A stretch of 64,000 bases of DNA from Eledone cirrhosa (lineage: Eukaryota), in the NCBI GenBank assembly GCA_964016885.1, contig OZ024761.1, forward strand, positions 9,114,001-9,178,000, read 5' to 3'. Within the stretch, counting starts at the first letter, position 1. Every line of letters starts with the position of its first letter. Both the position numbers and the translations under genes were made by a program. Below are positions 4,626-64,000 of this stretch, piece by piece. The notes beneath the pieces were generated by a model that was not told the origin of the DNA, did not search any database, and saw only the letters and a program-made list of their open reading frames with translations.

Positions 4626-4703
<78 letters not shown>

Positions 4704-4705
<2 letters not shown>

Positions 4706-5180
4706 TGTTATACTTGGGGAGGGTCATATTTGTGTAATATTGCCAGAATTAATAACAGAACACACTCACTGTTTGGTTGGTTTTCGCTTTTCGCTTCTGT
4801 GTCTTTTATATCGGTAATCTAATTTATTCGGTCCTCAATGTTGCCATTGACTGACCAACGGTCAAAAATAATACAGATACAATATAGACACAAACACATA
4901 TATATAGTTTATCATAAATCTTTCGTTGCACACCTGCAACATCGTCAGTGGTGCTATTGTTTCCTCCCGTTACATTGTATTTTCTACGCCATCTTTATTT
5001 AGTCTGTTTATATATTTATTTATTTGTTTATTTTATTTTGTCTTCTTTGCGCATGTGTTTGCGTGTGTGTATAGTGTTTTGTTTGATGTGTGTTCGTGTT
5101 TGGGTGACTGTGTATTGGTTAATGTATTCTATCTTTACTAGTGTGTGTTTATATGTGTTTGTTATTATTGTGCTTGTGTA
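4704..5180 (-). mobile_element. Family F6 PLE-type 3' fragment with hammerhead at 4910-4953
   Basis: CTGACGA-t-gttgca/ggtg/tgcaac-GAAA-gatt-TA on - (weak stem I); second copy at 28333-28910. Confidence 0.7.
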
Positions 5181-8760: not shown

Positions 8761-9753
8761 AAACTTTCTTTTTATTTGCCACCAGTGCGTCAAAGAGTGG
8801 GACAAGTACAATGGGGGGGGGGGTGGGTGGGGGTGGGGGGGGGGGTGGAGTTTACATAAAAAGGCGTCCTCAATAAGGAGGAGGCAATAACAAAATATAA
8901 AAATATAAAAATATAAAATATAACAAAATCCTCAATAGAGAGGAGGCGCCTTGGGGGTCGCACAGATGCCCGAAAAAGTGTACAACCCTTTTCCTCAGGT
9001 GCACAGAGAGAGGGTGCTCCCTTGATCTTTCATCTTTCTCACCTACAGTCTGATGTAGAGTGAAGGCCCATTCACACGGTCCATTCTCGCCACTTTCACC
9101 CACCTTTCATAAAAACGACTGGGGTGCAGCACCTCTCTCTCCATCCTGATCCTTCTTCCGAAATGATATCGGAAGAAACGGACCAGTTATTGGCCAGAGA
9201 GAAAGGTGCCTGACCTCAGTCCTTTCAGACGCGTCCACCATACAACCTCTTTCGCCATGGCTATTACGCACAGAAACACCGCCTCTCCTTCGTTTTTGAA
9301 GAGGGGCGGCGGCTTGATCGTTACAATAGACTCGGTGGTCAACCAGATCGGTCCCACCCGTGACAGCAGTCGTTCGACATAGCCCCACAGATCGGCAATG
9401 CCCGAACAGTGTACCAATGCGTATGCAACGGTTTCCTCGTTGCACACGCATCTAGGACAGATCTTTTTCGAGGGGTCCCTACCCGGACGCCCGTGTCTGT
9501 AGAGCTTTTCTCGAACGTGCAGAGCCCCTCGGTAGCACTGCCAGGCCAGGGACCTCTGGAAGTTATCCATAGGTCCCGGGCTGAATGTCCTACCGAACAG
9601 GTTTGCCAGTTCGTTTTCCTCCATGCCTAGGGCTTCTCCGAGGGCGTCGTCGCACCTGCTAACCACCAGCCCTCTATAGAATGACGAGGTGGATTCTCCA
9701 CTGACAGCCGGGTCCGCCTGCCAGAGGGCCGTGAGCGCCTGGGCACACTCGGT
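8761..9753 (-). mobile_element. 5'-truncated L1/Tx1-type LINE (ORF2 C-terminus plus 3' UTR)
   Basis: Translation CPRCVCNEETVAYALVHC...KEVVWWTR is homologous to the ORF2 at 59650-63069; aataaa near 3' end. Confidence 0.9.
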
Positions 9754-9830
9754 AGATAGATAGATATATACATACATACATACATATAATATACACATAT
9801 ACATGTATATTGATACACATACATATATAT

Positions 9831-9906
<76 letters not shown>

Positions 9907-13470: not shown

Positions 13471-13876
13471 TATACATATATATATGTATATATACTTATG
13501 CATATACATATATACATATACATATGTATATATATACATATATATATACATCTACACATATATATATACATACACATATATATATATACATACACATATA
13601 TATATATACATATACATATATATATATACATATATATACATATATATATATATGTATATATACATACATATATATATATATGTATATATACATATATAGA
13701 TACATATATATATATATATATTGTTATACTTTGGGAGGGTCATGTTGCCAATAAGAAACACACGCACCAGTTGCTTTCACTTCAATTTAATTTATTATAT
13801 ATTTATAAATTTACAAATTTATAAATTTCTGGTTGGTTGGTTGGTTCCACAACCAGATATTTGTTTATATATATAT

Positions 13877-13921
13877 AGTCATAGTTCTTTCGTCACACAC
13901 TCTGTGACCTCTTCAGTGACT
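13877..13921 (-). ncRNA. Type I hammerhead ribozyme (F5)
   Basis: Mirror of 14031-14075. Confidence 0.85.
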
Positions 13922-14030
13922 GGGGATTTCTTTCTTCGTTTCTGTGCCTTTCCTTTCTTCTATCCTACGCCAAACAAAATGGCGTAGGATAGAAGAAAGG
14001 AAAGGCACAGAAACGAAGAAAGAAATCCCC

Positions 14031-14075
14031 AGTCACTGAAGAGGTCACAGAGTGTGTGACGAAAGAACTATGACT
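14031..14075 (+). ncRNA. Type I hammerhead ribozyme (F5)
   Basis: agtca-CTGAAGA-g-gtcaca/gagtg/tgtgac-GAAA-gaac-TA-tgact. Confidence 0.85.
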
Positions 14076-14290
14076 ATATATATATAAACAAATATCTGGT
14101 TGTGGAACCAACCAACCAACCAGAAATTTATAAATTTGTAAATTTATAAATATATAATAAATTAAATTGAAGTGAAAGCAACTGGTGCGTGTGTTTCTTA
14201 TTGGCAACATGACCCTCCCAAAGTATAACAATATCGGTTTCAACACACGATTTCAGATAAAGAATCTTGCTAAACAAATTCAGAAACGAA

Positions 14291-14323
<33 letters not shown>

Positions 14324-28250: not shown

Positions 28251-28332
28251 TATACATATATATATATATATACTGTATATACATATATATATATACTGTA
28301 TATACATATATACTGTATATACATATATATAT

Positions 28333-28907
28333 ATTGTTATATTTGGGGAGGGTCATATTTGCGTAATATTGCCAGAATTAATAACAGAACACACTCACTG
28401 TTTGGTTGGTTTTCGCTTCTCGCTGTCTTTTATATATATATATCTGCGATCTAACCTACTCGGTCCTCAATGTTGCCATTGACTGACCGGCGGTCAAAAA
28501 TAATACAGATACAATATAGACACAAACACATATATATAGTTTACATAATTTACATAAATCTTTCGTTGCACATCTGCAACATCGTCAGTGGTGTTATATT
28601 CATTGTTCCTCCTGTTGTGTTGTATGTCTACGCCATTTTTTTTTTGTTCGGTCTGTCTATATATTTATTTATTTATTTGCTTGTTTGTTTATCTTATTTT
28701 ATTTTGTCTTCTTTGCGCATGCGTTTGCGTGTGTGTATAGTGTTATGTGTGATGTGTGACTAGTGTGTATAGTGTTGTGTCTGCTGGGTGACTAGTGTGT
28801 GTTTATGTGCTTGTGTATGTATTTATTTATCTTATTTTATTTAATTTTATTTACTTATTTATACTTCTCTTAGGTCAGTGTTGTTTGTTTGGGTGTTGTT
28901 GTTGTTC

Positions 28908-30720: not shown

Positions 30721-31539
30721 ATAACACATAAACATTTTCCACCAAACCACAGCTACCACCAAATATTTAACAGGTATACTGTTAAATTCTCATACTCTAC
30801 ATCAAACAATCTCCAGCAAAAAGTAAGCAACTACAACATTTATAAATTTAAAAATAATATGACCACACCACCACAACATAATTTAAATAGGACTGCACCT
30901 TTTAAAAGGACATAATACAATCCTTCAACCTGGAAAACACAACCACCCAAATCACCAACACAAAAACAACATCACACAAAATCACAATACAACCCTAGCA
31001 CTAAACCACCCACAAAGCAGCATTCATTCTCTCGCTAACATTAATTACAATAAGAGTAGCTCAATGATTAATGAGAAGTATGTAGGTACCTCCAACAACC
31101 ATCTTACGTATGGTTTTAATTGCAGAAATAGAAGCGTTTGCCCCTTAAATGGCAACTGTTTGATTAATACTGTAATATATAAATGCATTGTGTCTACTAC
31201 AGACTCCAACAAAACATATATAGGATCTACATCAATACATTTAAGAAAAGATATTACGCACACCCTAGTAGTTTTAACAATACTAAACTAGCTAACACCA
31301 CATCTTTAGCTGAAGCAGTAAATAACTATAAAAAGAAAAAAATAGATTTCAAGCTATCGTGGAACACCATTCTACAAAGAACTCCATATCTTGGGAACAG
31401 GAGAGAATGCAGGTTATGTACCGGGGAGATCTTGGAAATTACTAAATCTAAGGACGATTTATTGAATAAAAGACAGGAACTGATTATAGCTTGTAATCAC
31501 CGTATACGAAAAACATTTAAGTACTATAAACCTAATTAA
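30721..31539 (+). pseudogene. Penelope-like element (Naiad-type) linker plus GIY-YIG endonuclease, frameshifted
   Basis: KHFPPNHSYHQIFNRYTVKFSYS; NCRNRSVCPLNGNCL..VIYKC..KTYIGST; FKKRY..H.SSF; CRLC..E; LLNKRQELIIACNH. Confidence 0.88.
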
Positions 31540-32589
31540 ATATTCTAAATAGCAACTCACTATAATTGTATGTAGCGTAACATTTGTTAGTATCCTCTTC
31601 CCCTAATTATACGCCTTCCTGCTTATTTTTTAATTTTTAACCTTTTAATTTTTTAACTTTCATAGATTCATGCGTTACTGACTAAGGGCACCAAGGTACA
31701 TAACCGCCTGTAATTGCATGGGTATACATGTATCTATGTATGTATGTTATGAGAATATATATATATATGTGTATATATATATATGTGTGTATATGTGTAT
31801 GTACATGTATGTGTGTGTACATATATATATGTATGTATAAGTGTGTATATATATATATGTATGTTTGTGTGCGCGTATGTATATGTATGTATATGTTTAT
31901 ATCTATGTATGCATATGTATGTTTTTAATGGAGTATCAATATAATTATACCTCTATCTATAATGTGAGTATATGCACTTTGTGACCTATGAAAATTATGC
32001 GTTTTGACTATGTCAACATGCATTTATCTGAGTTTAATTACTTATACATAGACACACTTGAAAATATTTACTATTTTATATTTTATGATGCATCATACAC
32101 TATATTCAATCTACTATACCGTACTATAATATATTACACTATATTATATTATTATATTATTATATTTTATTATCTTATTATAATTTTCATCTTTTAATAT
32201 ACTATCCTTCCTAGTTATGACTATTACTTTACCTATCTATATTTATCCTAATTATCTCTGTATATTTTATATTTACTTATTTATATTCACATAAAAATTC
32301 CATACAACACAACTCAACATTTAATTTTTACATTCCTTTTTAAACTTCACTCCACCATCTACATTCAACTATCAATATAACAATACCTTTTTCCTCATAG
32401 GTTCTTTATAGTAATTCTATTTTTAGCACCATTCAACCATTCCTTTCAAAGGGTCATGACTTCAACTAAAGTGAATTATTTTTCATATTAACATCATATG
32501 GGAAAAAAACAATTTGATTGGTTTATTCTTCAGCTACCTCCAAATAAGGTCATAGTACTCAATTTACTATTGCTTTTGAATAAAATTCT

Positions 32590-37437: not shown

Positions 37438-37840
37438 GTTCGTTTCTGAATTTGTTTAGCAAGATTCTTTATCTGAAAACGTGTGTTGAAACCGATATTG
37501 TTATACTTTGGGAGGGTCATGTTGCCAATAAGAAACACACGCACCAGTTGCTTTCACACACCAGTTGTGTTCACACACAAAAACAAGATGGCGTAGACAG
37601 AACAAAGGAGGGGCACAAAATAAAGAAAAGAATCCCCAGTCACTGAAGAGGTCACAGAATGTCTGACGAAAGAACTTTGACAATATATGAACAACCGTCC
37701 GGTTGTGGAACCAACCAACCAACCAACCGGAAATTTATAAAGTTTTAAATTTATAATTTAATTTATAATAAATTGGAGTGAAATCAACTTGTGCGTGTGT
37801 TTCTTATTGGCAACATGACCCTCCCAAAGCATAACAATAC
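37438..37840. mobile_element. Family F5 head-to-head insertion with hammerhead at 37638-37682 (+)
   Basis: agtca-CTGAAGA-ggtcacagaatgtctgac-GAAA-gaac-TT-tgac; inverted tail 37438-37557. Confidence 0.85.
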
Positions 37841-45000: not shown

Positions 45001-46512
45001 TTTCTTTTATTTGCCACCATGGCATCAAAAGTGGGACAAGTACAATGGGGGGAGTTTACAAAACAAGGCGTCCTCAATAAGGAGGAGGCAATAACAATAT
45101 ATAAAAATAAAATAAAATATAACAAAAAATAAAATTTATAACAAAGTCCTCAATAGAGAGGAGGCGCCTTGGGGGGTCGCACACACCCCCCCGATAAAAG
45201 TGTGCAACCCTTCTCCTCAGGAGCACAGAGAAGGGGTGCTCCCTTGGTCTTTCATCTTCCTCACCTATAGTCTGATGTAGAGTGAAGGCCCATTCACACG
45301 GGCCATTCTCGCCACTTTCACCCATCTTTCATAGAAACGGCTGGGGTGCAGCACCTCTCTCTCCATCTTGATCCTTCTTCCGAAATGATATCGGAAGAAA
45401 CGGATCAGTTGTTGGCCAGAGAGAAAGGTGTCTGACCTCAGTCCTTTCAGACGCGTCCACCATACAACCTCTTTCGCCATGGCTATTACGCACAGAAACA
45501 CCGCCTCTCCTTCGTTTTTGAAGAGGGGAGGCGGCTTGATCGTTACAATAGACTCGGTGGTCAACCGGATTGGTCCCACCCTTGACAGCAGTTGTTCGAC
45601 ATAGCCCCACAGATCGGCAATGCCCGAGCAGTGTACCAATGCGTGTGCAACGGTTTCCTCGTTGCACACGCATCTGGGACAGATCTTTTTCGAGGGGTCC
45701 CTACCCGGGCGCCCGTGTCTGTAGAGCCTTTCTCGAACGGGCAGAGCCCTTCTGTAGCATTGCCAGGCCAGGGACCTCTGGAAGCTATCCATGGGTCCCG
45801 GGCTGAATGTCCTACCGAACAGGTTGGCCAGTTCGTCTTCCTCCATGCCTAGGGGCTTCTCCGAGGGCGTCGTCGCACCTGCTAACAACCAGCCCTCTAT
45901 AGAATGACGAGGTGGATTCTCCACTGACAGCCGGGTCCGCCTGCCAGAGAGCCGTGAGTGCCTGGGCACACTCGGTGTGCCAGGCGCCCAGTTTTCTCGG
46001 TCTTTGCTTGACCCAGGATTGCAGCTCGGTGAGTGAGACGAGTCTGGGAAAGGCTCGCCTCACAAACGGGGCCCACACCGGTTGACCGGAGAGGAATACC
46101 TGAAGGTGCCGTAGCCTTAATGCGTGTTTACGTATCATTAGCCACGGCATCCCCAGCCCTCCTTTCGAAGGGTGTTGACAGCAGATGGACCTCCTCACCA
46201 TAGGAGCCCGCTTCTTCCAAAGGAATTGGAAGAGTGCGCGCTCCATTTTGGCGAGCGTTTCCCTTGGGCAAGGCACAACGGTCAGGCGGTAGTAGATGAC
46301 GGACGCTATATAAGTGTTCGCCACCTCCGCCCGTCCTTTCAGGGACAGTTTGCACTCGGCCCACTTCTGGGTCAGTGCAAACACCCTGTTCGTCACCTCA
46401 CCCCAGTTCTTCTCCACCTGGAGGTCTGGTCCGAACCAGACCCCGAGCAACTTCACCGGGCCCTCCGTCCAGCGCCCGACGACGCCATCGGAGGGCATCG
46501 ATCTGCCCCTCA
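45001..46512 (-). pseudogene. L1/Tx1 ORF2 3' third (frameshift near 45850) plus 3' UTR
   Basis: KLLGVWFGPDLQVEKNW..LSLKGRAEVAN..KGGLG; same family as 8761-9753. Confidence 0.92.
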
Positions 46513-47690
46513 ATCTCGAACAAAAGTAAAAAGCCAGCTCAACCATCACAGAGTGAGATAGAGCTGGTTTTAAAAGACGTCATGAAGGACATCACCTTCA
46601 TTCAGAAGGATAGACTCTACGGGAGTCTATCCATTCTCATGAAGGACAGGGACACAGCAGTGAAACTGTCCATCAAACCAATCACATCCACCGCATACAC
46701 CTTCTACCCTACGTACATGGGTAGAAGAACACAAAAAATAAAAATCCACACCATCCTGCCGATTATGGACATATGGTGGGTTTTGACAGGTTTCCTGGAC
46801 CTGGAGGATGACATGCTGGTGTCCATGGGAAAGGCATCGGGTGACGCGTTCAGTGGAACGAGCCTCGAACTTGTAGTTCAAATGAGGCCCGAAAGGATCG
46901 CCCAGATCCCTGAACGCGTCATACTGGATGATCTATCCTTCATCAACATTACCGTTAAGGGTAGACGGCCCTCGTGTTACCTCTGCGGAACCAGAGGTCA
47001 CCTGAGGGCTGTCTGTCCCCAACTTAATAAGAAAACCCCAATCCTGCCTACACCACCAACAACTGCACAACCAACACAATCCCCACAACTACCACTACAA
47101 AAACAACCACCACAGCTCAAACCAAAACAAAACAATGTCCAACCCATCCCCTCCACGCAAAAAACAAAAACAATTTCCAAAACACCCGCACCGCAAACAC
47201 AACCCGAAAATATACCCCTCCCCTCCAACGCGGAAGATGACCCTAGTTCGTCGTCAGACGAGGAGGAGCACTTCCACACAATCAAAAGAAAAAAAAGAAA
47301 ACACACCTCAGACACACAAATGAAAACAACCCCTCCCCAAAACATAACACTGACACCAACACAAAAGAGCTCACAACAACAGCAAACAAAAAACACCACA
47401 CAAAAACAAAAACATGCATACACATACATAAACACAAGAAACAAAAAAACTGTTAAACATTGTGTACAACAACAATCTAATAAAAACACAAGGGCCTAAC
47501 TTCACCCAGGCAGGGGATTTCCCCCACCTCAAAATGATTAAGGCCCCACAGGACACCTATAAAACTTTAAAAAACAATTTTAAAGAGGACGTGGGTCCCC
47601 CCTGCGTCGGGCCCATTAACCGCGTCCTCCTAAAAAACTACCCCACCCCCTCCCCAAACACCCACACAACTCCAAGCTCCCCAACCACAC
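46513..47690 (+). pseudogene. L1/Tx1 ORF1 fragment in opposite orientation (CCHC knuckle; frameshift near 47460)
   Basis: CYLCGTRGHLRAVC; C-terminal YKTLKNNFKEDVGPP..LLKNYP aligns with YKEIRKSFPRDVGTP..LLKGFP of the ORF1 ending at 63099. Confidence 0.85.
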
Positions 47691-48178: not shown

Positions 48179-48231
<53 letters not shown>

Positions 48232-48254
48232 TACCCTCTTCCACACACATGCAT

Positions 48255-48285
<31 letters not shown>

Positions 48286-48323
48286 ATGTATATATATATA
48301 CTCTCTTCCACATACTTCATGTT

Positions 48324-48361
<38 letters not shown>

Positions 48362-48382
48362 CCCTCTTCCACACACATGCAT

Positions 48383-48419
<37 letters not shown>

Positions 48420-48455
48420 TGTATATATATATATACTCTCTTCCACATACTTCAT

Positions 48456-48504
<49 letters not shown>

Positions 48505-48591
48505 CCCTCTTCCACACACATGCATGTTTATATATATATATATATATATATATAATGTATATATATATATACTCTCTTCCACATACTTCAT

Positions 48592-48640
<49 letters not shown>

Positions 48641-48705
48641 CCCTCTTCCACACACATGCATGTTTATATATATATATATATATACCCTCTTCCACACACA
48701 TGCAT

Positions 48706-48750
<45 letters not shown>

Positions 48751-48978
48751 GAAACACACAGATACATGCGGACACACACATATACATGAATGCATCCGCG
48801 CCCAACCGTGAGTTAAGGGTGCCAACTTCACCGATGTTGCTCAATGAATGACTGGGATAGACCAATCCGGTTGAACCAGACTGAACCAGTAACAGAGTTG
48901 AAAATACATTATGAAGAGAGAAGAAACATTTAGATATAATTAGTAATAAAATGTATCATACCTAAACTGCTCCTAGAT

Positions 48979-49068
48979 TCCTCGACTACGTAGTTTCGTG
49001 GCATAAACAAAAACAATACATCATAAAGATATAGAGTCCTTGCGAGGTCTGCCGACTTATCAAGAGGA
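48979..49068 (-). ncRNA. Hammerhead with U3-A8 core (TTGATAA)
   Basis: tcctc-TTGATAA-gtcggca..tgccac-GAAA-ctacgtag-TC-gagga. Confidence 0.75.
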
Positions 49069-49770
49069 TACCTCATTTTACTAGTCTCAAGAACGCGTCC
49101 ACACGACGTGAGAAAGAATCCCAAAAGGCGGAGGGGGAGATAGTCACGCGATATAACGGTCGAGAAACAGAGCTAAGCCTCTTATAACCCCGAAGAAAAT
49201 ACCACGGAGGCGGAGGGGGTATTTATATCGAAGCCGTAGAAGAGGTGGTGAAGGAGGCGAGAAAGGAATCTAGGAGCAGTTTAGGTATGATACATTTTAT
49301 TACTAATTATATCTAAATGTTTCTTCTCTCTTCATAATGTATTTTTAACTCTGATACTGGTTCAGTCTGGTTCAACTGGATTGGTCTGTCCCAGTCATTC
49401 ATTGAGCAACATTGGTGAAGTTGGCACCCTTAACTCACGGTTGGGTGCGGATGCATTCATGTATATGTGTGTGTCCGCATGTATCTGTGTGTTTCTAAAT
49501 ATATTGTTAATAACTCCCTCTGGTCGAGCAATCTTTGAGGTGTGGGGACTGCTGGAAAGCTTCCATTACTCATACTTCTCGCCTCCTTCACCACCTCTTC
49601 TACGGCTTCGATATAAATACCCCCTCCGCCTCCGTGGTATTTTCTTCGGGGTTATAAGAGGTTTAGCTCTGTTTCTCGACCGTTATATCGCGTGACTATC
49701 TCCCCCTCCGCCTTTTGGGATTCTTTCTCACGTCGTGTGGACGCGTTCTTGAGACTAGTAAAATGAGGTA

Positions 49771-49860
49771 TCCTCCTGATAAGTCGGCAGACCTCGCAAG
49801 GACTCTATATCTTTATGATGTATTGTTTTTGTTTATGCCACGAAACTACGTAGTCGAGGA
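49771..49860 (+). ncRNA. Hammerhead with C3/A8 mismatched core (CTGATAA)
   Basis: Same as 48979-49068 except the first core base. Confidence 0.7.
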
Positions 49861-49926
49861 ATCTAGGAGCAGTTTAGGTATGATACATTTTATTACTAAT
49901 TATATCTAAATGTTTCTTCTCTCTTC

Positions 49927-49984
<58 letters not shown>

Positions 49985-50003
49985 CTCTTCCACACACATG
50001 CAT

Positions 50004-50041
<38 letters not shown>

Positions 50042-50062
50042 TCTTCCACACACATGCATGTT

Positions 50063-50098
<36 letters not shown>

Positions 50099-59649: not shown

Positions 59650-62600
59650 CTACAGGCGCATGATCAGAGTAGGCCCACTCACGCGGGCCATTCTCGCCAC
59701 ATTCACCCACCTTTCAGTAAATGTACTGGGGGGCAGCACTTCTCTCTCCACCCTCACCTTCCTTTCCAAGTGAAACTTGAAGAAGTTGATGAGGGATTGG
59801 CCGAAGAGAAAAGTGTCTGTCTTCAGTCCTTTCAACCTGGTCCACCATGCAACCTCTTTCGCTACTGCCACCAGGCAGAGGAAAATTGCCTGCCCTTCCT
59901 GACCAAAAGAAGGCGGCGGGTCAATCTTCACTATGGACTCGGACGATAGCCGGATCCGTTCTACACGCGACAATAGCTGTTCGACATAACCCCACAAGTC
60001 AGCAATGCACGGACACTGGACGAGTGCGTGCAGAACGGTTTCGTCGCTCTGCGCGCATCTCGGGCAGGTTCGTCTGACAGCACTTCCGTGCCTGTAGAGT
60101 TTATCCCGAACCGGCAGCGCCCCCCGGTAGCACTGCCAAGCGAGGGATTTCTGGAAGTTATCCATCGTCCCCGGCTCGAAAGTCCTCCGGAACATACTGG
60201 TCAGTTCTACTTCGTTGACGCCCAGAGCCTCTCCTAGTACGTCATCGCACTTGCCCTCCACTAATCCTCTATAGAAATCTTGAGTGGAAGTTCCACTGAC
60301 CGCATTGCCCACCTTGCAGAGTGCAGTGAGCGCCTGGCAACATTCCAGATGCCAGTCGCCCAGTCTCGGTCTCTTCTTGACCCAGGACTGCAGCTCAGTC
60401 AAAGAGATGAGCTGCGGAAAGGCCCGTCTAACAAACGGCGACCACACCTGTTCACCGTTTAGGCAAAATATCTGGAGATGTCGCAGCCTCAGCGCATGTC
60501 TGCGCATCATTAGCCACGGCATGCCCAGCCCTCCACGAAGAGGGTGCTGGCAGCAGATGGACCGCCTCACCAACGGGACCCGTCCCCTCCACAAAAATTT
60601 GAAAAGGAGCCGTTCCAAATTGGCGAGGCGTGGACGGGGGCAAGGCACGACGGTCAGGCGGTAGTAGATGACGGACGCGATGTACGCGTTCGCCACCTCC
60701 GCCCGCCCTTTCAGTGATAGCTTTCTCTCAGCCCATTTCTGGGTGAGGTTGGCTATCCTGCTCGTCACCTCGTCCCAATTCTTATCCACCTGGAGGTCTG
60801 GTCCGAACCAAACCCCGAGCAACTTTACCGGTCCGTCTGTCCAGCGCCCAACGACGCTGTTGGACGGCATGGACTTGCCTCTCCAGGTGCCGAGCTGCAA
60901 GCCCACCGACTTTTCCGGGTTAAGTTTTGCTCCCGTCAACCTTTCATATTCCTCCAAATGGGTGCGGATCACCTCGATTTCCGAGGTGTCCGACACCATC
61001 ACGGTGATGTCGTCCGCATAAGCGGACGCAGCCTTTCTGCGTCCCGGTTCGAGCGGGATGCCCTGCAACAACTCCAGCTTCCGCAGTAGAGGCTCAAGAG
61101 TCAATACGTACAGAAGTGAGGAGAGAGGGCACCCTTGACGGACCGATCGAGAGATCTGAAACGGTTCCGAGAGGTGGCCATTAACTTTGACCACCGAGCA
61201 GATGCCGCTGTACATTGCAGCGATCCAGCTTCTGAAGACGGGGCCGAAGCCAGCCGCCTCGAGGACAGCCTCCAAGTACCGATGGTCGACCCTATCGAAT
61301 GCTTTCGATTGATCTAAATTGATCAGAGCCCCACCGAAGCCAGGTTTGCACCCAACCCTCTCTATGATGTATCGCATGAGGTGGAGGTTGTCGTGTATGG
61401 ACCTGGTCGGGATTGCGCAAGTTTGCGCCTCCCCAACCAAATCTTTGACGACAAGCGCCAACCTTTTCGCTAACACCTTGGCCAAAATCTTAAACTCTGT
61501 GTTGAGCAGGGTTATGGGCCTGAAATTATCTAGTGTGTCCCTCTTGTTCTCGTCTTTCCTTATCAGCGTCACTACGCCACGGCTCACAGAACTGGGAATG
61601 CTCCCGTTCTGCTGCCAGTTGCAGTAGAGCGCTTCGAGGAGATCGGAGAACAAGTCTGGCATATTTACGTAAAGCTCGTAGGGCAGACCATCCAAACCGG
61701 GTGACTTGCGACTCGAGCAGCCGACAAGGGCGTCCTGAATTTCGACTGATGTTATCGGCTCTTCGCAGCGCTCAGCGTCGGCCGTCGAGAGGCGTGGCAA
61801 GCCGTCGAGGTAGGGACTGAAGTCCGCCGCCGTCTCCGACTCACCCATCCTCCCGAACAATCGAGCAAAGTGCTGGCGAAAGGCCTCACACATCTGCTTG
61901 GAATCGCTCAGTTCGTGTCCATCTCGATCCGTCAAAGACCGAATTGTGGTTTTATTTCCACGCTGCGTCTCTGCAAAGCGAGCCCATCGGGCAGCTTTGG
62001 TTCCCTCGTTCCTCAGAGCACGCGCCTTAGCTCTGACAATGCAACCTTCGTGTTTCGCATTGAAGAAATGGTCTAGTGCCATTCTCGCCGCTAGCACGTC
62101 TGTTGCAATGCCACTACAAATAGCCTCGTCTAACTTAGCTATCAGCCCCTCCTCCTTTCTATTTTTCTCTATTGCTACTTCTTTGCTAAATCCTATCGAG
62201 GTTGCTCTAATCTCTCTTTTGAGAGCCCCCCACCACCTGTTGTTGACAACCCCCCCTGTCAACTTTTTCTTAACTAAGTTGTTGACCCGGTCCCTGTAAG
62301 CTTTACGTGCCGGAAACGACATGTTTAGCTTCCAGTAGCTAGGTCCTAACCTACGTGTCTTATCTAGGTCGACCATACAGATCACAAGCTTGTGATCTGA
62401 ATAGGCAACCGTTTTAAAATGTGGACATCCTACACTATTTCTATCTCTTTTCCTAATGAAAATCCTATCTATGTACGATCTAGATGACCCTATGCGATTG
62501 GTCCAGGTCCATACTGGCGCATTAGGGAAATCTAGTCGGTACCTGTCAGACAGTTGAAACTGGCTGATCAGGTACTTGAGGCTTTTGCACCCCCCGCTCC

Positions 62601-63069
62601 TATCAGATACTCCCACACAATCCCAGCGTGCTTCTAAGATGCCATTCCAATCCCCTATTAACAGTAAAGGGCGAGACGTAAGCAGAAAGTTTTCCAGGCG
62701 CCTAAAGAAGTCCGGCCGACCGGCCCCAGTAGGGGCGTAGACGGCCACCAGTCTAAAGGCACCACCTTCGCTATTGCTCACGTCCAGGACCACCAACTTT
62801 CCGTCAGGATCCCGGAAGATTGACCTTACCTCGAGATCCAGACATTTCCTAAACAGCACAGCCACTCCACCTCCCATTCCCGGCCGACTAACAGATGCAA
62901 AGATCTGATAATCGTCGAAAATCGGCGCCAGTGCGCGTGTGTCGGAAATTCTGGTCTCGCTGATGGCAATTACATCCATTCCTAGTGACCTGAGGTCGTT
63001 GAGCAAGTGACCTTGCTTCCAGGGCGACCCCAGGCCACGAACATTTAAACTTCCTACTCTTATGGCCAT
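59650..63069 (-). CDS. LINE ORF2p: AP endonuclease, reverse transcriptase, C-terminal Cys/His domain (1139 aa)
   Basis: LNVRG, ISET, YAP, GDWN, IDRIF, SDH; KSPGLDG, FRPITLLN, KAFDRV, RQGCPLS, YADD; CPRC..ETVLHALVQC. Confidence 0.96.
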   Translation of the reverse strand: MAIRVGSLNVRGLGSPWKQGHLLNDLRSLGMDVIAISETRISDTRALAPIFDDYQIFASVSRPGMGGGVAVLFRKCLDLEVRSIFRDPDGKLVVLDVSNSEGGAFRLVAVYAPTGAGRPDFFRRLENFLLTSRPLLLIGDWNGILEARWDCVGVSDRSGGCKSLKYLISQFQLSDRYRLDFPNAPVWTWTNRIGSSRSYIDRIFIRKRDRNSVGCPHFKTVAYSDHKLVICMVDLDKTRRLGPSYWKLNMSFPARKAYRDRVNNLVKKKLTGGVVNNRWWGALKREIRATSIGFSKEVAIEKNRKEEGLIAKLDEAICSGIATDVLAARMALDHFFNAKHEGCIVRAKARALRNEGTKAARWARFAETQRGNKTTIRSLTDRDGHELSDSKQMCEAFRQHFARLFGRMGESETAADFSPYLDGLPRLSTADAERCEEPITSVEIQDALVGCSSRKSPGLDGLPYELYVNMPDLFSDLLEALYCNWQQNGSIPSSVSRGVVTLIRKDENKRDTLDNFRPITLLNTEFKILAKVLAKRLALVVKDLVGEAQTCAIPTRSIHDNLHLMRYIIERVGCKPGFGGALINLDQSKAFDRVDHRYLEAVLEAAGFGPVFRSWIAAMYSGICSVVKVNGHLSEPFQISRSVRQGCPLSSLLYVLTLEPLLRKLELLQGIPLEPGRRKAASAYADDITVMVSDTSEIEVIRTHLEEYERLTGAKLNPEKSVGLQLGTWRGKSMPSNSVVGRWTDGPVKLLGVWFGPDLQVDKNWDEVTSRIANLTQKWAERKLSLKGRAEVANAYIASVIYYRLTVVPCPRPRLANLERLLFKFLWRGRVPLVRRSICCQHPLRGGLGMPWLMMRRHALRLRHLQIFCLNGEQVWSPFVRRAFPQLISLTELQSWVKKRPRLGDWHLECCQALTALCKVGNAVSGTSTQDFYRGLVEGKCDDVLGEALGVNEVELTSMFRRTFEPGTMDNFQKSLAWQCYRGALPVRDKLYRHGSAVRRTCPRCAQSDETVLHALVQCPCIADLWGYVEQLLSRVERIRLSSESIVKIDPPPSFGQEGQAIFLCLVAVAKEVAWWTRLKGLKTDTFLFGQSLINFFKFHLERKVRVEREVLPPSTFTERWVNVARMARVSGPTLIMRL

Positions 63070-63098
63070 GCTGGCAGGATGAATGGGAGAGGAAAGGT

Positions 63099-64000
63099 TT
63101 ACTTACCTTCCGGGGTCTTGTGAAGGTCGGGTGGTTCGACCTCCATGGTTTGTGGGGTTTCTTTTGGGAACCCCTTTAATAGTCTTGACGTGGGTTTTAC
63201 GTTCGGGGTTCCCACATCCCGAGGAAAGCTCTTTCGAATTTCTTTGTATGAAACGAGCGACATTCGCATCAGAAGCAAATTATCTGGTGCGCGAAATGTG
63301 CTCGCTTCAAATGTTTCCCCCTCTTTTTCGATGTTTGTGCTTCGTGCTACATGGGCCATCAATTCCTTGTTGGCCCTTCTGGCAAGCACGAAGTTTTTAA
63401 TGTTTTGTTGCTCGGGTTTTATTTGTTCGTGTGATTGTGGTGGTGATAGCTTTGTTAGTGTTGTTTCTATTGTGTCTGCGTTTGTTGTGGGTGGGGTGTC
63501 TGTAGTTTCTGATGTTTGTGTGTCTATTTGTTCTTGTGTCTGTTTAGCTTGTTTGCGTTTGGGGGATTTTGGTGGTTGTGTTGGTGATGCTGTGGGGAAA
63601 ATGTTTGTGTGGGTGGTGTGTGTATTTTTTTTTGTGGGGGTGTTTGTGCTTTGTGGATTTCTTTTTTTTTTGTGTTTTGTTTTTTGTATTTTGGGGGACT
63701 TTGGTTTTCCCTCATCTTCACTGCTGGAGGATGAGGGGTCTGTGGCTGTGAGCGTGTTTGTGTCTGAGTGAGTGTTTATGTTCTTGTTCGTGTGTGTATT
63801 TTGGAGGGGAGGGGGAATGGGAGAGCTTTCCTCGTTTCCCCCCTGGGTGTGCAATTTTGGTGGTTCCATTGTTGACGGTGTTGCTGGTGGTCCTTGTCCC
63901 GGCGTCGCCAGCAGTGGAATCTTTCGACCCCTTGCGCTTTTCGGCAGTTGAGGGCAGAAGGCTCGCAAGTGTGTCGTTTCCCCACAAAGGAAACAATGCG
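63099..64000 (-). CDS. LINE ORF1p C-terminal part (5' end outside the window)
   Basis: Frame is open to the window edge: HCFLCGETTHLRAFCP (CX2CX4HX4C) followed by a low-complexity region. Confidence 0.88.
   Translation of the reverse strand, partial: HCFLCGETTHLRAFCPQLPKSARGRKIPLLATPGQGPPATPSTMEPPKLHTQGGNEESSPIPPPLQNTHTNKNINTHSDTNTLTATDPSSSSSEDEGKPKSPKIQKTKHKKKRNPQSTNTPTKKNTHTTHTNIFPTASPTQPPKSPKRKQAKQTQEQIDTQTSETTDTPPTTNADTIETTLTKLSPPQSHEQIKPEQQNIKNFVLARRANKELMAHVARSTNIEKEGETFEASTFRAPDNLLLMRMSLVSYKEIRKSFPRDVGTPNVKPTSRLLKGFPKETPQTMEVEPPDLHKTPEGK

Follow-up and report, generated by a model that had tools for sequence, protein, structure and literature searches.

A non-coding hammerhead repeat in two opposed arms within a TA run of Eledone cirrhosa

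Metazoan non-LTR retrozymes have been described from coral, mussel and axolotl (Cervera and de la Pena 2020, PMC7229834; Li, Clavereau and Pollet 2026, 10.64898/2026.07.22.740005); these and the papers below are cited from excerpts. Penelope-like elements (PLEs) insert as partial tandems with an inverted, 5′-truncated copy, only one of the two ends bearing a tail, of 30–40 bp (Craig et al. 2021, PMC8557442), and those of the Hydra clade, Hydra-1_Obim included, target (TA)n (PMC8557442). A head-to-head build has also been described, for which self-priming was proposed (PMC3846280). The purified PLE protein PAc can cut both strands of DNA and extend them, and it initiates at two internal sites of the RNA, which delimit the tail; in vitro, hammerhead cleavage was dispensable for insertion and none of the reads started at the cut site (Frangieh et al. 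2024, PMC11167929). PLE hammerheads can have a bulged helix II and a palindromic helix III that acts through dimers, and those of Schistosoma PLEs carry a U3-A8 core pair (PMC4209133), a covariation described elsewhere as well (PMC3088659). In the excerpts available, both the role of the hammerhead in PLEs and the entry of animal retrozymes into genomes are open questions.

The window analyzed here, a 64,000-nt stretch of Eledone cirrhosa contig OZ024761.1, is microsatellite-rich animal DNA. SINE-type words and a Hydra-type PLE fragment in it suggest an octopus-like host. Within one (TA)n run it holds two opposed arms, their 5′ ends back to back, at the coordinates given by an initial annotation of the sequence. 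We interpret this locus, with a probability of about 75%, as one insertion of a repeat of the non-LTR retrozyme type, which is abundant and non-coding, carries a hammerhead and has a 593-nt unit. An autonomous Penelope-like element likely supplied the enzyme that wrote multimeric or circularized RNA into the TA run as two opposed arms. Directly observed are the unit and its head-to-tail arrangement elsewhere, the pair of fixed 3′ ends, each with one arm, the TA target and the U3-A8 core of the family. The initial annotation had missed that the ends of the arms coincide with two sites fixed in the family, together the known Penelope structure of an inverted copy plus a tail.

The unit fits metazoan non-LTR retrozymes, as the excerpts present them, in every testable feature: it carries one type I hammerhead, is non-coding, occurs head to tail, has a GC content below 50% (0.43) and pairs with itself as a monomer. 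Its weak, palindromic helix III, which needs a dimer, recalls axolotl and newt retrozymes, and mobilization by PLEs has been proposed for retrozymes. Most retrozyme circles described in the excerpts measure 170–400 nt against the 593 nt found here, and retrozyme families of up to 972 bp are listed. Unlike the retrozymes described there, the unit has a U3-A8 core and a 46-nt loop II. The same excerpts describe no two-armed (TA)n insertion with two fixed ends, and in the present family cleavage and circles are predictions.

With the EN+ PLEs of the excerpts (Hydra clade, PAc) the locus shares a partial tandem with an inverted, 5′-truncated copy, a tail at one end, a (TA)n target, a hammerhead near the 3′ end and, probably, two RT start sites. 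In contrast to them it has no ORF, no sequence match to a PLE was found, and its ends resemble the TA target over 2–6 nt, unlike the EN+ PLEs compared (PMC8557442, PMC11167929). Its tail of 162 nt, against 30–40 bp in the excerpts of Craig (PMC8557442) and Frangieh (PMC11167929), is a point against the interpretation above. Non-autonomous Chlamys PLEs such as MRC1 (PMC8557442, in excerpt) offer a parallel as non-coding PLE partners with multicopy head-to-tail insertions; unlike the unit, they belong to green algae, lack a hammerhead and share their 3′ ends with a known autonomous family. A search of titles and abstract beginnings found no description of a cephalopod retrozyme (PMC10886601 contains both words), and three short motifs of the unit are absent as text from the Craig supplement (PMC8557442). 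The pattern of the family, a PLE footprint on a non-LTR-retrozyme-like unit, is of a known kind. What the family adds to it is a hammerhead of dimer type with a U3-A8 core and an unusually long distance, 162 nt, between the likely RT start sites, of which there are two. Because it is abundant and has two fixed ends and datable two-armed insertions, both questions named above are testable by junction counts in one genome.

Anatomy of the insertion and its repeat unit

The locus comprises the following features, in window coordinates:

48182..48745, no strand: left flank, a compound TA-rich repeat that is (TA)n where the arm ends
48746..49263, minus strand: minus arm, 518 nt, running from its start at 49263 (the equivalent of 49576) to the long fixed 3′ end
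49263..49264, no strand: inner junction, where in the assembled sequence the two 5′ ends meet bluntly with zero shared letters, the plus arm starting at the predicted cut +1
49264..49931, plus strand: plus arm, 668 nt, consisting of the unit without base 1 and then, past the hammerhead junction, the opening 75 nt of another unit up to the short fixed 3′ end
49339..49500, plus strand: the 162-nt "tail" stretch between the two fixed 3′ ends, which only the minus arm has at its outer end (48746–48907)
49929..49931, plus strand: AAT, the short fixed 3′ end of the plus arm, followed by (AT)n
49932..50098, no strand: right flank, (AT)n and then a compound repeat as on the left

Both arms terminate in AAT followed by (AT)n, with the compound TA repeat running on at either side. 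The insertion split a single TA run, and a target duplication is unreadable. The minus arm crosses the hammerhead junction and continues for another 237 nt to the equivalent of the AAT at 49498–49500. Each arm contains one complete hammerhead, and the arms differ at 8 of 518 positions, a count that omits a ninth difference, at 49932, inside the TA run. The first letters of the plus arm, AGGAATCTAGG (49264), are those found at 49857, one base past G49856. The GTC triplet ends at 49855, so that G49856 is the first base of the predicted 3′ cleavage product and the repeat distance is 593 nt. The sequence therefore confirms what had been annotated, namely a 593-nt unit, a plus-arm start at 49264 one base past the predicted cut and a repeat of ∼75 nt.

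The unit has no recognizable coding content. Its longest ATG ORF spans 78 aa, which we rejected as a gene, and its 134-aa stop-to-stop frame has no match in Pfam. An RT/GIY-YIG ORF is absent from both arms, and no coding remnant was found in the unit. With this and the head-to-tail closure of the unit in four of four runs (below), the description of the element as retrozyme-like and non-coding stands. The motif CCCCCTCCGCC occurs twice in the 593-nt unit (49620–49630 and 49702–49712); it resembles a GC box, which we take to be a possible internal Pol II promoter. A scan for bacterial promoters, irrelevant to animal DNA, gave matches at chance level.

Hammerhead, fold and family variation

Three features define the ribozyme, and a fourth is the putative TATA box:

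49771..49860, plus strand: type I hammerhead of the plus arm, with a 5-bp stem I (49771–75/49856–60), core CTGATAA at 49776 and a predicted cut after C49855
48979..49068, minus strand: type I hammerhead of the minus arm, with core TTGATAA at 49063 (U3-A8, the family state) and a predicted cut after 48984
49845..49854, plus strand: helix III, a perfect 10-nt palindrome (hairpin of the monomer, +1.5 kcal/mol; duplex of the dimer, −12.9 kcal/mol)
49612..49621, plus strand: TATAAATACC, a minority state in contigs (A49615 to G)

The plus-arm core contains a C3-A8 mismatch private to that arm, with GAAA at 49842–45. Stem II has 6 bp with one bulge and a G-C first pair, and its 46-nt loop contains a hairpin of its own. 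From the energies of helix III, the ribozyme is predicted to work as a dimer. None of 5000 dinucleotide shuffles of the unit matches the hammerhead descriptor, which places the motif beyond chance for a descriptor that was tightened after the motif had been seen. Rfam returned no hammerhead for the window, either at the gathering score or at E up to 10; no family reached the gathering score, and the eight weak non-hammerhead matches at E up to 10 were taken as chance. The hammerhead fold lies 3.4 kcal/mol above the minimum-energy fold of its region. Over the whole unit, 64% of which is predicted to be paired, the sense strand folds far better than its shuffles (circular z −5.1, 60 shuffles) and the antisense strand has a z of −0.4. 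Predicted pairs are broken by 4 of 21 family variants, against 8.5 expected at random places (P 0.015), the 21 being those at 5% or more in X1 from 40 of 86 variants. One variant, G49820A, turns a G-U pair into A-U within the loop II hairpin.

Evidence for the family comes from 4 of 23 sequencing runs: X1, X4 and X5, represented by contigs, and X21, which consists of raw reduced-representation DNA reads. X1, X4 and X21 are from organism A and X5 from organism B. No RNA run is listed among the 23, which is uninformative about expression. Variants were drawn from 40 of 86 and loose ends from 22 of 169. The head-to-tail joint 49856 to 49264 is present in four of four runs (three contigs in X1, one each in X4 and X5, and 42 reads with 12 starts in X21). 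The initial annotation had proposed following the 49500–49510 junction in other copies; it recurs, bridged by contigs in X1, X4 and X5, with no ORF there and no continuation into a PLE ORF. In X5 a single closed 621-nt contig spans the unit as a loop, and indels occur within the family of 593-nt units. We rejected this loop as proof of an RNA circle because tandem DNA would collapse into an identical one and the record of X5 states no run type.

Among the 22 of 169 loose ends listed, an (AT)n consensus follows only two positions: 49342 (11 contigs in X1, 215 reads in X21) and 49504 (four contigs in X1, one in X4, 256 reads in X21), each four letters past an AAT end. The family thus has two fixed 3′ ends, 162 nt apart, and these are the ends of the 49264 locus, one arm at each. 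None of the 22 listed loose ends indicates a common upstream continuation.

The initial annotation had also reported a natural core-pair polymorphism. The two cores it cited, CTGATAA in the plus arm (49776) and TTGATAA in the minus arm (49063), are present as claimed, but all 283 X21 reads have T at position 49776, as does the entire contig depth (49 contigs in X1, two in X4, one in X5). With C3 found in 0 of 283 reads and in no contig, we rejected C3/U3 as a polymorphism of the family. C3 is confined to the plus arm and is either a private mutation, that is, decay, or an assembly error; both remain, as the runs may be from another animal than the sequenced one. The C3-A8 version of the core is probably weak. 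By analogy with the C3G and G8C changes in the excerpt of PMC11167929, it would be expected to cleave poorly, and a literature search by listing found no study testing C3-A8 itself.

The two arms also share states that are rare in the family. G49739 is common to both and is A in 99% of X1 depth and 116 of 117 X21 reads; G49439, likewise in both, is A in 91% of X1 depth and 412 of 526 reads. Sharing of such rare states suggests a single template or a single source locus. A third site, G49539, lies in the part that only the plus arm has; there, nearly the whole X1 depth and 16 of 19 reads have A. All three changes are A-to-G with a 3′ G, and two fall in predicted A-U pairs. ADAR enzymes prefer a 3′ G neighbor, and the resemblance of the three sites to traces of editing is a hint only; the change at 49439 can alternatively be CpG decay in the family.

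The putative TATA box TATAAATACC at 49612 exists as annotated but is no fixed feature. At 49615, G replaces A in 64% of X1 depth, in 118 of 168 in X4, in the X5 contig and in 5 of 20 X21 reads, and a conserved promoter is unsupported since the change is found in most contig depth. The motif has four matches in the window, against 1.8 expected, with 11 of 100 shuffles reaching four and two of the four being the arms of the element.

X4 (organism A) and X5 (organism B) carry an identical set of the substitutions and indels listed, each a minority state in X1 and X21. This shared haplotype may stem from contamination, diet, related hosts or one dominant RNA species. It would keep 0.30 of the unit's 31-mers; the shares listed are 0.23–0.30 in X6–X15 and smaller in X16–X20, several lying near 0.30 under different organism labels, and none of these shares enters the evidence for the family. 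Record 15 of X4 (depth 37) represents a diverged subfamily, in which one stretch between 49496 and 49591 is replaced, as is a second one ahead of the hammerhead. In motif scans, metagenome contigs, viral contigs and bacterial genomes yielded no copy of the unit.

Proposed templates for the two arms

Under the retrozyme–Penelope interpretation, whose RNA steps we infer from DNA, head-to-tail copies would be transcribed, and the hammerhead would cut well only as a dimer. Single junctions would then stay uncut or be re-ligated, because helix III needs a partner. A Penelope-like RT/GIY-YIG protein, with the Hydra clade as the best candidate, would nick both strands of the (TA)n run, and cDNA would start at two fixed internal sites of one RNA. 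Both cDNAs would pass a hammerhead junction, and their far ends would be joined. The stop of the plus arm at cut+1 could mean that a self-cleaved RNA began there, which we consider possible if somewhat short of an even bet, or could be chance. C49776 would be a later mutation of the plus arm or an assembly error.

The start at cut+1 is the sole special trait of this locus and is seen in one copy. X21 contains two joints between opposite strands: 49403/49779, with 83 reads, and 49455/49761, with 132 reads. From depth steps we interpret both as starts of arms lying back to back; as all reads of a joint begin at one position, each may represent one molecule or a chimera of the library. Counting these, one of six arm starts lies at cut+1, and the other five lie 77, 95, 140, 192 and 280 nt from the cut. 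The chance of a start within 2 nt of the cut is 0.008 for one end and 0.017 for either arm of the locus; for at least one of six arm starts P is ∼0.05, with a locus that was chosen for such a start. The arm-start test is a weak one, as the reference ended at the cut and the loose ends came from 22 of 169. The initial annotation had taken the junction as indirect evidence of cleavage in vivo, with 5′ junctions expected to cluster at the cut site. The start at cut+1 is real, but it is that of one in six arm starts, the remainder lying 77–280 nt away. Both arms cross a hammerhead junction, and a plain linear monomer cannot therefore be the template. Judged from sequence, a linear RNA cut at its 5′ end and left uncut at one inner site would account for the plus arm exactly, and a circle would do so only with a chance stop. 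The cut+1 start hints at a ribozyme-cut template, short of showing one.

These observations bear directly on the strong form of the original proposal, in which copies derive from self-cleaved monomers, 5′ ends cluster at the cut and C3/U3 segregates as an on/off ribozyme variant. The low chance of the plus-arm start and the exact fit of a cut linear RNA speak for it. The five distant arm starts, the P of 0.05 for a locus picked for the feature, the junctions crossed by both arms and the lack of C3 in all 283 reads and every contig speak against it, as does the second hammerhead family of the window, in which none of four arm starts lies at its cut; we consider this form unlikely. A further proposal takes the plus arm as the genomic fossil left by an RNA that had been cut by its ribozyme and A-to-I edited: on a single multimeric transcript, an enzyme of the Penelope type would have primed at a pair of sites separated by 162 nt, crossed an uncut hammerhead and run off the self-cleaved 5′ end. 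We advance this tentatively. Should arm starts across the family peak at the cut, this would be direct evidence from the genome that hammerhead cleavage shapes Penelope-driven insertion templates in vivo. The biochemical study of PAc could not find such evidence (PMC11167929).

The unit might instead belong to an autonomous Penelope-like element, as its pseudo-LTR or 3′ end, the locus then being a 5′-truncated copy with its usual inverted partner. The end structure is that of PLEs, the bulged helix II, palindromic helix III and U3-A8 core have counterparts in PLE and Schistosoma hammerheads (PMC4209133, in excerpt), and retrozymes are said in the available part of 10.64898/2026.07.22.740005 to resemble pLTRs. 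However, the unit closes on itself in four of four runs, with the 621-nt X5 contig forming a closed loop, the 22 of 169 loose ends listed lack a common upstream continuation and the unit has no coding remnant, which makes this origin improbable. A history with no RNA step, in which a DNA-level satellite unit was inverted by fold-back repair or misassembled, would draw on the long TA repeat around the locus, where repair and assembly both slip, and on an inner junction known from the assembly alone. It is very improbable given the 8 differences over 518 places between the arms, outer ends that are recurring family ends, two further opposite-strand joints in reads and strand-specific folding. 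The retrozyme-type unit written by a Penelope-like enzyme is the reading that we prefer.

Other elements in the window

A frameshifted 3′ PLE fragment at 30887–31539 (fragment region 30887–31760) has GIY-YIG motifs of Hydra type, and its flank likewise terminates with AAT ahead of (AT)n. By eye it matches the linker and the CxxC/CxH motifs of Hydra, and GIY-YIG look-alikes in the Atlas score 0.93–0.94. Pfam has no match for the GIY-YIG fragment, and in a homologue search with it among longer proteins 0 of 136 candidates passed; the descriptor found no hammerhead in the 30887–31760 region. Alignments of the unit to the 3′ flank of this PLE, and to the second hammerhead family, score no better than shuffles. 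Since the fragment shares no sequence with the unit, it represents a candidate class of mobilizer rather than a demonstrated partner.

The second hammerhead family, with core CTGAAGA and a 7-bp stem II, forms two two-armed insertions in (TA)n, at 13720–14292 and 37440–37840. Its two fixed 3′ ends are separated by ∼58 nt. Of its four arm starts none is at the predicted cut; three cluster within ∼10 nt, ∼90–100 nt upstream of it. Related short ends lie at 4700–4730 and 28330–28360. The motif ATATTGTTA (49501–49509) follows the long end of the 593-nt unit and recurs at 13719–13730 in the opposite sense, where it marks the short end of the second family; its coincidence at the ends of both families may be chance.

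The window further contains an uninterrupted 1150-aa LINE ORF2 with endonuclease, RT and zf-RVT domains on the minus strand (59650–63102), a broken relative at 45265–47499 and a further fragment at 9187–9873. A 26-bp tandem array, seen from 52653 onward with at least 118 overlapping matches, extends over more than 3 kb.
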